Source: Rozella allomycis CSF55 (taxonomy: Eukaryota). From it: a DNA stretch of 64,000 nucleotides. Positions within the stretch are counted from its first letter, which is position 1. Each line of letters begins with the position of its first letter. Location of the stretch: contig KE561068.1 of the NCBI GenBank assembly GCA_000442015.1, positions 1 through 64,000 on the forward strand, given 5' to 3'. Shown here piece after piece: positions 11,681 to 12,478 of the stretch. The position numbers and the translations under genes are program-made. Below the pieces are notes generated by a model. That model worked only from the letters and a program-made list of their open reading frames with translations. It ran no database searches and was not told where the DNA came from.

Positions 11681-12478
11681 ATGTCTGTACGAAAGGCTAT
11701 GCCCCAAACTTATCAATGCAAGTTAGTTATGCTAGGTATAATAATTTATGTTACTTTTTGAAAGGTGAATCAGCTGTAGGTAAAAGCAGCTTAGTGATTC
11801 GTTTTGTTAAAGGGCAATTCCACGAGTATCAGGAGAGTACTATAGGTGGTAAAATATTCTAATATTATTAATTTAGCTGCCTTTCTCACACAAACTGTAG
11901 TAGTAGATGATGAAACAGTAAAATTTGAAGTAAGTAGTTTAATTGGTTGTTGATTGATATGGGATACTGCTGGCCAAGAACGCTTCAGATCATTGGCTCC
12001 AATGTATTACAGAAATGCGCAAGCAGCACTGGTAGTATTTGATATGACTAGCACAGTAATGGATTTAAATTTTCTAAGACAAGGAATCCTTTGAACAAGC
12101 TAAAAGTTGGGTTAAGGAACTTCAGAGGCAGGCTTCTTCAAATATAGTTGTAGCATTAATAGCGAATAAGGTGAAAATATATATTTGTTTCAATTAGGTA
12201 TAATTTTTATTGAACCAATATTTCAGAGTGATCTAAACGGAAAAAGATGTGTCTCAGAAGAAGAAGCGATTCGATACGCCGAGGAGCAATCATTAGTTTA
12301 TATGGAAACATCGGCTAAAACTGGGCAAAATGTAAATGAGGTTTTCACCCAAATAGGTAAATGTAGATGCTAGGCTATATTAGCTAAAAAAATTCCAAAA
12401 GAATCGTCAAAACCAAGGCCGGATGCTGTGGAGTTAAACAGACAGGCTTCTTCGAATGCAGGAAAGGCTTGTTGCTAA
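11681..12478 (+). CDS. RAB5: Rab5-family GTPase (Ypt5/Vps21-like)
   Basis: [66 protein letters not shown]-terminal CC. Confidence 0.96.

Follow-up and report, generated by a model that had tools for sequence, protein, structure and literature searches.

Two segments of 27 nt in Rozella allomycis CSF55, one within a Rab5-type small GTPase gene and one within a cytosolic-type malate dehydrogenase (MDH) gene, are probably real U2-type spliceosomal introns with a constitutive TG at the 3' end. Both lie in the 64,000 nt of DNA that were analysed (contig KE561068.1 of assembly GCA_000442015.1, positions 1 to 64,000 of the forward strand), called the window in the following. The letters support the view that each 27-mer is an intervening sequence and not coding, and we infer its excision from coding logic. 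The ends of the segments are read as splice sites because the homologues are contiguous at these points, and both segments contain TGA in frame, the codon that genuinely terminates the MDH gene.

The 27-nt segments in the Rab5 and MDH genes

The Rab5-type gene (11681..12478, plus strand) has seven exons and six introns, and its product matches Rab5A/C structures. In order, the introns measure 29, 28, 27, 28, 56 and 27 nt, and the third of them ends with TG. Exon 3 (11877..11929, plus strand) closes in phase 0 with the residues ...DDETVKFE and is followed by the intron-like segment (11930..11956, plus strand; GTAAGT...GATTG). Exon 4 (11957..12055, plus strand, 99 nt) starts with IWDTAGQE, ends with FDMTST and encodes G3 / switch II. 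Translation of the segment in frame gives VSSLIGC*L, the stop being TGA. When the segment was read through with an X placed at the stop and used as phmmer query, its nine codons appeared as a clean insertion relative to the Rab5A/Rab5C structures, with identical flanking residues (best E 2.5e-17). Removal of the 27-mer together with the canonical introns leaves a full GTPase frame that ends with CC and then TAA. Within the 27-mer AG occurs only twice, ending at positions 5 and 8; after these, none ends before position 49, which already belongs to the WDTAGQE exon. Moving the boundaries of this 27-mer never produces canonical ends while leaving the mRNA unchanged.

The MDH gene (675..1817, plus strand) consists of six exons with 332 codons plus TGA, and its introns are, in order, 27 (with the TG end), 28, 31, 26 and 32 nt long. 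Its 27-nt segment (786..812, plus strand; GTAAGG...ACTTG) contains an in-frame TGA and lies between FGNDQ and KIDLYLLEI. As in Rab5, the structures have a nine-residue gap where the 27-mer sits, and its removal with the canonical introns gives a complete frame of 332 codons with TGA as stop. No AG ends between positions 6 and 48 counted from the donor, and the one that follows ends at position 49, within essential coding sequence.

As seen from these data, the original prediction of a 27-nt, TGA-bearing segment exactly between KFE and IWDTAGQE holds in coordinates and letters, and the AGs of Rab5 do lie within 8 nt of the donor only. The MDH case, which had been put forward as its equal in length (27 nt), GTAAG donor and TTG end, agrees in all these points and has an in-frame TGA as well. 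With regard to the base call at the TG sites, the letters of MDH are confirmed in three runs and those of Rab5 in one, while a second run over Rab5 has one difference in 800 nt that is not placed.

These comparisons with run contigs bear on the possibility that the T at 11955 arose by miscalling or misassembly, or that the site is heterozygous with a normal TAG as its other allele. The unplaced difference, in the X6 contig over Rab5 (11526-12325, 800 nt), would allow this, and window and run contigs also differ at 19594 and 19633 (substitutions) and at 13345 (indel), plus 19 unlocated letters. The X2 contig that spans Rab5 (10158-13375) has 0 letter differences at a word depth of about 312, however, with neither break nor bubble at the site; run X2 is a possible source of the assembly, and its contigs were built separately. 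An error or allele in Rab5 cannot explain MDH either. The MDH span (583/584-3485) is covered by contigs of X2, X6 and X7, of which X2 shows no letter difference and X6 and X7 three each, at 619, 651 and 3418. Since the TTG is found in all three runs, and X6 and X7 carry flanking variants, it is present on two haplotypes. We consider an error or allele at 11955 very unlikely. The metatranscriptome X10 gave only short pieces with a likeness of 90-99%. Among them is a stretch over 11957-11989 that has 2 mismatches and lies in a contig of 222 nt; it is probably another organism's and uninformative on the Rab5 junction.

The same contigs gave further observations on the window. Its single N is at 1882, and over 583-3485 the contigs of the three runs are 19 letters longer; these 19 gap letters probably sit at the N. 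A second haplotype is visible over 3503-8567, where 58 letters differ and 23 gap letters occur in X6 and X7. At 17908-18696 (within 17408-20000) X2 has both alleles, about one third being alternative, X6 the alternative and X7 the reference form, and by these allele patterns the samples carry recombinant combinations of haplotypes. Two tRNA genes with equal scores are located at 537-610 and 3457-3530 (minus strand), and a zf-RVT reverse-transcriptase frame (40-600) adjoins the tRNA gene at 537-610. The word depth in X2 is about 11800 at 1-667 versus about 310 elsewhere, which indicates a high-copy retroelement beside tRNA genes. A frame of 346 codons at 23640-24677 (plus strand) matches the Uma2 family (PF05685, putative restriction endonuclease; E 1.5e-08).

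In the public gene model P0241 (window 11681-13198, plus strand) ...VKFE is joined to ESFEQ..., so that exon 4 is omitted, and the C-terminus of Rab5 is lost; the model continues into the downstream calmodulin gene. If this join were right, the Rab5 splice would run from the donor at 11930 to the AG at 12083, giving a GT-AG intron of 154 nt, and the 99-nt exon would be skipped with the frame kept. Such a product would be without WDTAGQE (G3 / switch II), which is part of every known Rab. The skipped 99 nt moreover stay open in frame and share 27 of their 33 residues with human Rab5C, and 154 nt is far beyond the class of 26-31 nt described below. P0241 is an obvious chimera with calmodulin and clearly owes nothing to transcript data; the TG intron has been overlooked. 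Skipping of exon 4 is therefore highly improbable in our view. Gene inventories that trace reduction from Cryptomycota to Microsporidia may miscount genes with such introns.

A protein search with exons 3 and 4 read through found no Rozella model of at least 105 aa that holds exon 4; in the top matches, P0121 and P0122, the motif simply occurs twice. In the large database no protein of this size contains both exons of the gene. The ORF P0123 of an environmental relative is identical in 44 of 49 residues over exons 3-4 with KFEIWDTAGQ uninterrupted. As its exons are fused, the Rab5 TG intron is not common to that relative. A metagenome scan, in which 14 of 80 kept loci were examined and which favours contiguous copies, gave contiguous KFEIWD or KFDIWD, and none of these loci was Rozella-like; owing to this bias the scan is uninformative.

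The 27-mers could also be handled without a spliceosome, by ciliate-IES-like DNA excision, by ribosomal bypass, or with TGA as a sense codon. An IES is flanked by a TA direct repeat at both boundaries and is absent from somatic DNA, and translational bypass uses matching take-off and landing codons. Rab5 alone allows a reading shifted by one base, TA...TA, which gives KFEVWD, but in MDH the shifted boundary is followed by AA and the TA repeat is missing, and the segments are present in all DNA runs compared. The codons for bypass mismatch in both genes (GAA versus TTG/ATA in Rab5, CAA versus TTG/AAA in MDH). A sense reading of TGA is at odds with the TGA that ends MDH and with the occurrence of TAA, TGA and TAG as stops, and read-through would place a nine-residue insert inside conserved core elements. 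Both segments begin with the intron donor GTAAG. We give handling of this kind next to no chance.

Canonical introns of the window and the fit of the TG ends

The window has a G+C content of about 36%, and many of its conserved genes are split into short open frames. For an intron census, coding-like open frames were chained and frame-consistent introns were required. Exactly one GTA..AG solution, with 22-34 nt allowed, was obtained for 51 of 86 junctions between adjacent ORFs, and all of these introns measured 26-31 nt (14 of 26 nt, 11 of 27 nt, 12 of 28 nt, 8 of 29 nt, 4 of 30 nt and 2 of 31 nt). A looser scan gave 92 non-overlapping candidates with an unchanged length peak. The 51 unique introns and three hand-checked ones form the set of 54 used below; it was selected by the requirement for AG, and its counts thus describe the canonical class and not the frequency of AG usage.

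In these 54 introns the donor consensus is GTA, then A (45/54), then a mixed base, and the acceptor consensus is A/T at -4 and T/A at -3, then AG. YTRAY occurs in 23 of them at a spacing of 3-23 nt and is absent from 31. A branch point with a clear motif and spacing does not emerge from the set. In 53 of the 54 introns splicing is assigned to the first AG that ends 25 nt or more from the donor. Nine introns pass over an AG ending at 20-24, and six pass over a TG ending at 25-26, using an AG 2-5 nt further on. In-frame stops, seen in 15 of 15 introns with a length divisible by three, were discarded as evidence, because discovery from ORFs forces this result. GTAAG is not depleted from coding sequence, with 11 sense versus 14 antisense copies in 35.6 kb.

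Some introns depart from the common form. Donors other than GTAA are GTTGAT (57341-57368, minus strand, an intron of 28 nt), GTGAAA (12171, plus strand) and GTACCA (1573-1604, plus strand). The last belongs to the 32-nt intron of MDH, which is confirmed by the MDH reading ...GTKQ/GEIVSM. Longer introns can be built from two tiny units joined at AG/GTA, as at 12171-12226 in Rab5 (plus strand, 56 = 27+29), 35776-35834 (plus strand, 59 = 30+29) and 55996-56043 (minus strand, 48 = 26+22). Judged by their letters, such tandem introns could be removed unit by unit, that is, by recursive splicing. The intron of RPLP0 (10363-10501, 139 nt), a conserved gene of the window with its frame at 10469-11293, is not built from AG/GTA units. 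The protein of this RPLP0 frame is 100% identical to an NCBI entry of R. allomycis CSF55, the organism that is also named for the Rab5 model P0241. At 8422-8448 (minus strand) a 27-nt GTAATT...AAATAG lies between coding-like frames and is one base off frame with them. The frames would fit with a GC donor located two bases further upstream; the gene is without family match.

The two TG introns agree with the U2-type class in several respects. Both have a GT donor (GTAAGT in Rab5, GTAAGG in MDH), both are 27 nt long, within the 26-31 nt range of the organism, and in both genes the homologues are contiguous and the frame is restored on removal. They depart from the class at the 3' terminal AG, in place of which both end with TTG. 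With ATTG in Rab5 and CTTG in MDH, the 3' ends resemble the consensus except at position -2. Counting from position 25 onwards, the first G in both introns is G27, and from position 9 (Rab5) or 6 (MDH) through 48 there is no AG. By the organism's own matrix the acceptor context of Rab5 is average and that of MDH weak, at or above only 5 of the 54 canonical introns. YTRAY is represented by TTAAT or TTGAT in Rab5 and by CTGAT in MDH, and is a motif that 31 of the 54 canonical introns lack.

The original prediction had held that a strong U1 match plus a fixed distance licenses a TG acceptor. The idea of a fixed distance fits the census, given the lengths of the introns, the use of the first AG at 25 nt or more, and the nine skipped AGs at 20-24. 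A strong U1 match was not supported: scored with the organism's matrix, the TG introns' donors are at or above 27 and 34 of the 54 canonical ones, which is average, and a GTAAG start is shared by both TG introns and 12 of the 54. That both TG introns begin with GTAAG hints at compensation at the 5' end, but no more than that. A third GTAAG..TTG candidate had also been named (18403..18431, minus strand; GTAAGA...ATATTG). Its 29 nt and an in-frame 35-nt alternative ending with CGAG were both found; with this canonical alternative, and in an unknown gene without family match, the candidate is uninformative as evidence.

Both strands of the window were scanned for GTAAG-N19-TTG, which gave five matches, two of them being the Rab5 and MDH introns. 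The matches at 35969 and 2398 are not introns, being antisense to dynein and Pet127 genes. Neither is that at 57065, which lies in an exon just after a canonical intron and has inconsistent frames. An unbiased scan for non-AG ends returned 41 candidates spread over 13 dinucleotides, which corresponds to background noise. Its TG hits at 32747 and 46015 were rejected as an alternative frame of a continuous dynein ORF and as antisense to ArgRS, respectively.

Use of the TG sites or gene decay

In the mechanism that we propose, the 3' splice site would be found mainly by its distance from the 5' splice site or the branch point, with AG preferred and not obligatory. Rab5 and MDH offer no AG in the reachable window, and G27 would then be used, with U at -2. 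Splicing at 11929^11957 (Rab5) and 785^813 (MDH) would restore the conserved protein sequence, with predicted mRNA junctions of ...AAATTTGAA to ATATGGGAT... in Rab5 and ...GACCAA to AAAATCG... in MDH. In structures of the C*/P spliceosome the last G of the intron pairs with the first G, and the base at -2 contacts the branch adenosine. A UG end would keep the G-G contact, which would account for the prevalence of TG among GT introns that do not end with AG.

A wider reading, which we put forward tentatively and at somewhat less than an even chance, is that the Rozella spliceosome places the 3' end of its ultrashort introns by measuring off about 26-31 nt, with AG no strict requirement, so that constitutive UG acceptors may occur in about 2% of introns and AG/GTA tandems may be removed recursively. 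If this is true, hundreds of Rozella genes with UG acceptors would be broken or fused by current annotation.

The TG sites may on the other hand have arisen by loss-of-function mutations from AG to TG, with the introns retained or mis-spliced and these copies of Rab5 and MDH dead or dying in a weakly selected parasite. In the human survey discussed below no TG served as the only 3' site, and in both Rozella genes the closest AG on the downstream side ends as far as 22 nt beyond the TG; the weak acceptor context of MDH also points in this direction. Two further conserved genes of the window contain apparent lesions. In the FAT region of TOR (minus strand), the codon at 62842-62840 is an in-frame TAG, which aligns gap-free to a Glu of human mTOR, and an intron of 21 nt, the sole option with GT-AG ends, was rejected because it would delete residues aligned to structures. 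This TAG would be an assembly error, a nonsense allele or a case of read-through; elsewhere in the window TAG ends 5 of 36 frames judged terminal and appears to be an ordinary stop in this organism. In an axonemal dynein heavy chain gene the frame changes at 38488-38498 (plus strand), where both frames align to residues 3802-3803 of human DNAH5 and about one extra base is found within ...GCAGCAAGCTGAA.... Introns of 25 or 28 nt were rejected by alignment to structures, no intron accounts for the change, and it is either an assembly indel or a real frameshift. As the window differs from the run contigs at the three positions given above (19594, 19633 and 13345; 20 kb compared), the lesions in TOR and dynein may both have been introduced in assembly. 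Should they prove real, the case for gene decay at the TG sites of Rab5 and MDH would be strengthened.

Several findings speak against decay. Both genes are highly conserved and otherwise intact across 5-6 further introns. The deviations in Rab5 and MDH are an identical single change, TG for AG, at the same position and in introns of the same length; by a rough inference, this has a probability of about 1 in 12 if disabling single changes fall randomly over the four canonical positions. The TTG of MDH is common to two haplotypes, and a viable organism that forms motile zoospores would be an extreme case if four of about 35 genes, all core genes, were broken. Decay is thus unlikely, and we favour splicing at the TG sites.

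Comparison with known intron systems

U12-type introns, a non-canonical class, have the 5' box RTATCCTT and AT-AC or GT-AG ends. The 27-mers begin with GTAAGTAG and GTAAGGTT and do not carry this box. Tiny introns of narrow size range are also found in the ciliates Paramecium and Stentor, which belong to a different supergroup. Their narrow lengths imply a steric or ruler constraint as in Rozella, whereas their ends are GT-AG, unlike the TG ends described here.

Rozella has ultrashort introns in common with microsporidia such as Encephalitozoon cuniculi, its sister lineage, as described in passages of PMC6349667. According to the same passages a 76-nt intron of E. cuniculi has about three times the length of the other introns, and non-AG intron ends in microsporidia are not mentioned there. 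Rozella is intron-rich, with an intron density given in a passage of PMC8476143 as 2.5 per kb, in contrast to microsporidia with few or no introns. Medians of fungal intron length range from 29 to 197 bp in the part of PMC8042348 consulted, whose text does not allow the value of 29 bp to be attributed to Rozella. A literature search, which did not extend to the original genome paper, found no paper on non-canonical splice ends in Rozella.

The closest likeness is with human TG 3' sites. TG is documented as the favoured non-AG 3' end of human GT introns (PMC2374985; Szafranski et al. 2007), and the passages of PMC2374985 considered here give 36 cases with a frequency of 0.02%, every one of them an alternative site that has an AG next to it. 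GT-TG is mentioned in other surveys as well (PMC4176328, PMC1557818). Judged by the same passages of PMC2374985, the Rozella cases share with the human sites the GT 5' end, the TG 3' end and otherwise U2-like features. The human TG often lies 3 nt from an AG, whereas around the Rozella TG both the 21 nt downstream and the 18 nt upstream are free of AG. The 27-mers consequently do not form a tandem TG-AG site with an AG within a few nt, since the downstream AG ends 22 nt past the TG and the upstream one at position 8 or 5. The TG of Rozella would instead be constitutive, in two cases beside about 54-92 canonical tiny introns in 64 kb. If the two junctions are real, they contradict the rule of the human survey that TG works only beside AG, and introns of 27 nt with no nearby AG would provide a natural system for studying how the second splicing step finds its site. 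Under the wider reading put forward tentatively above, Rozella would be the first eukaryote in which a TG by itself regularly serves GT introns as 3' splice site.
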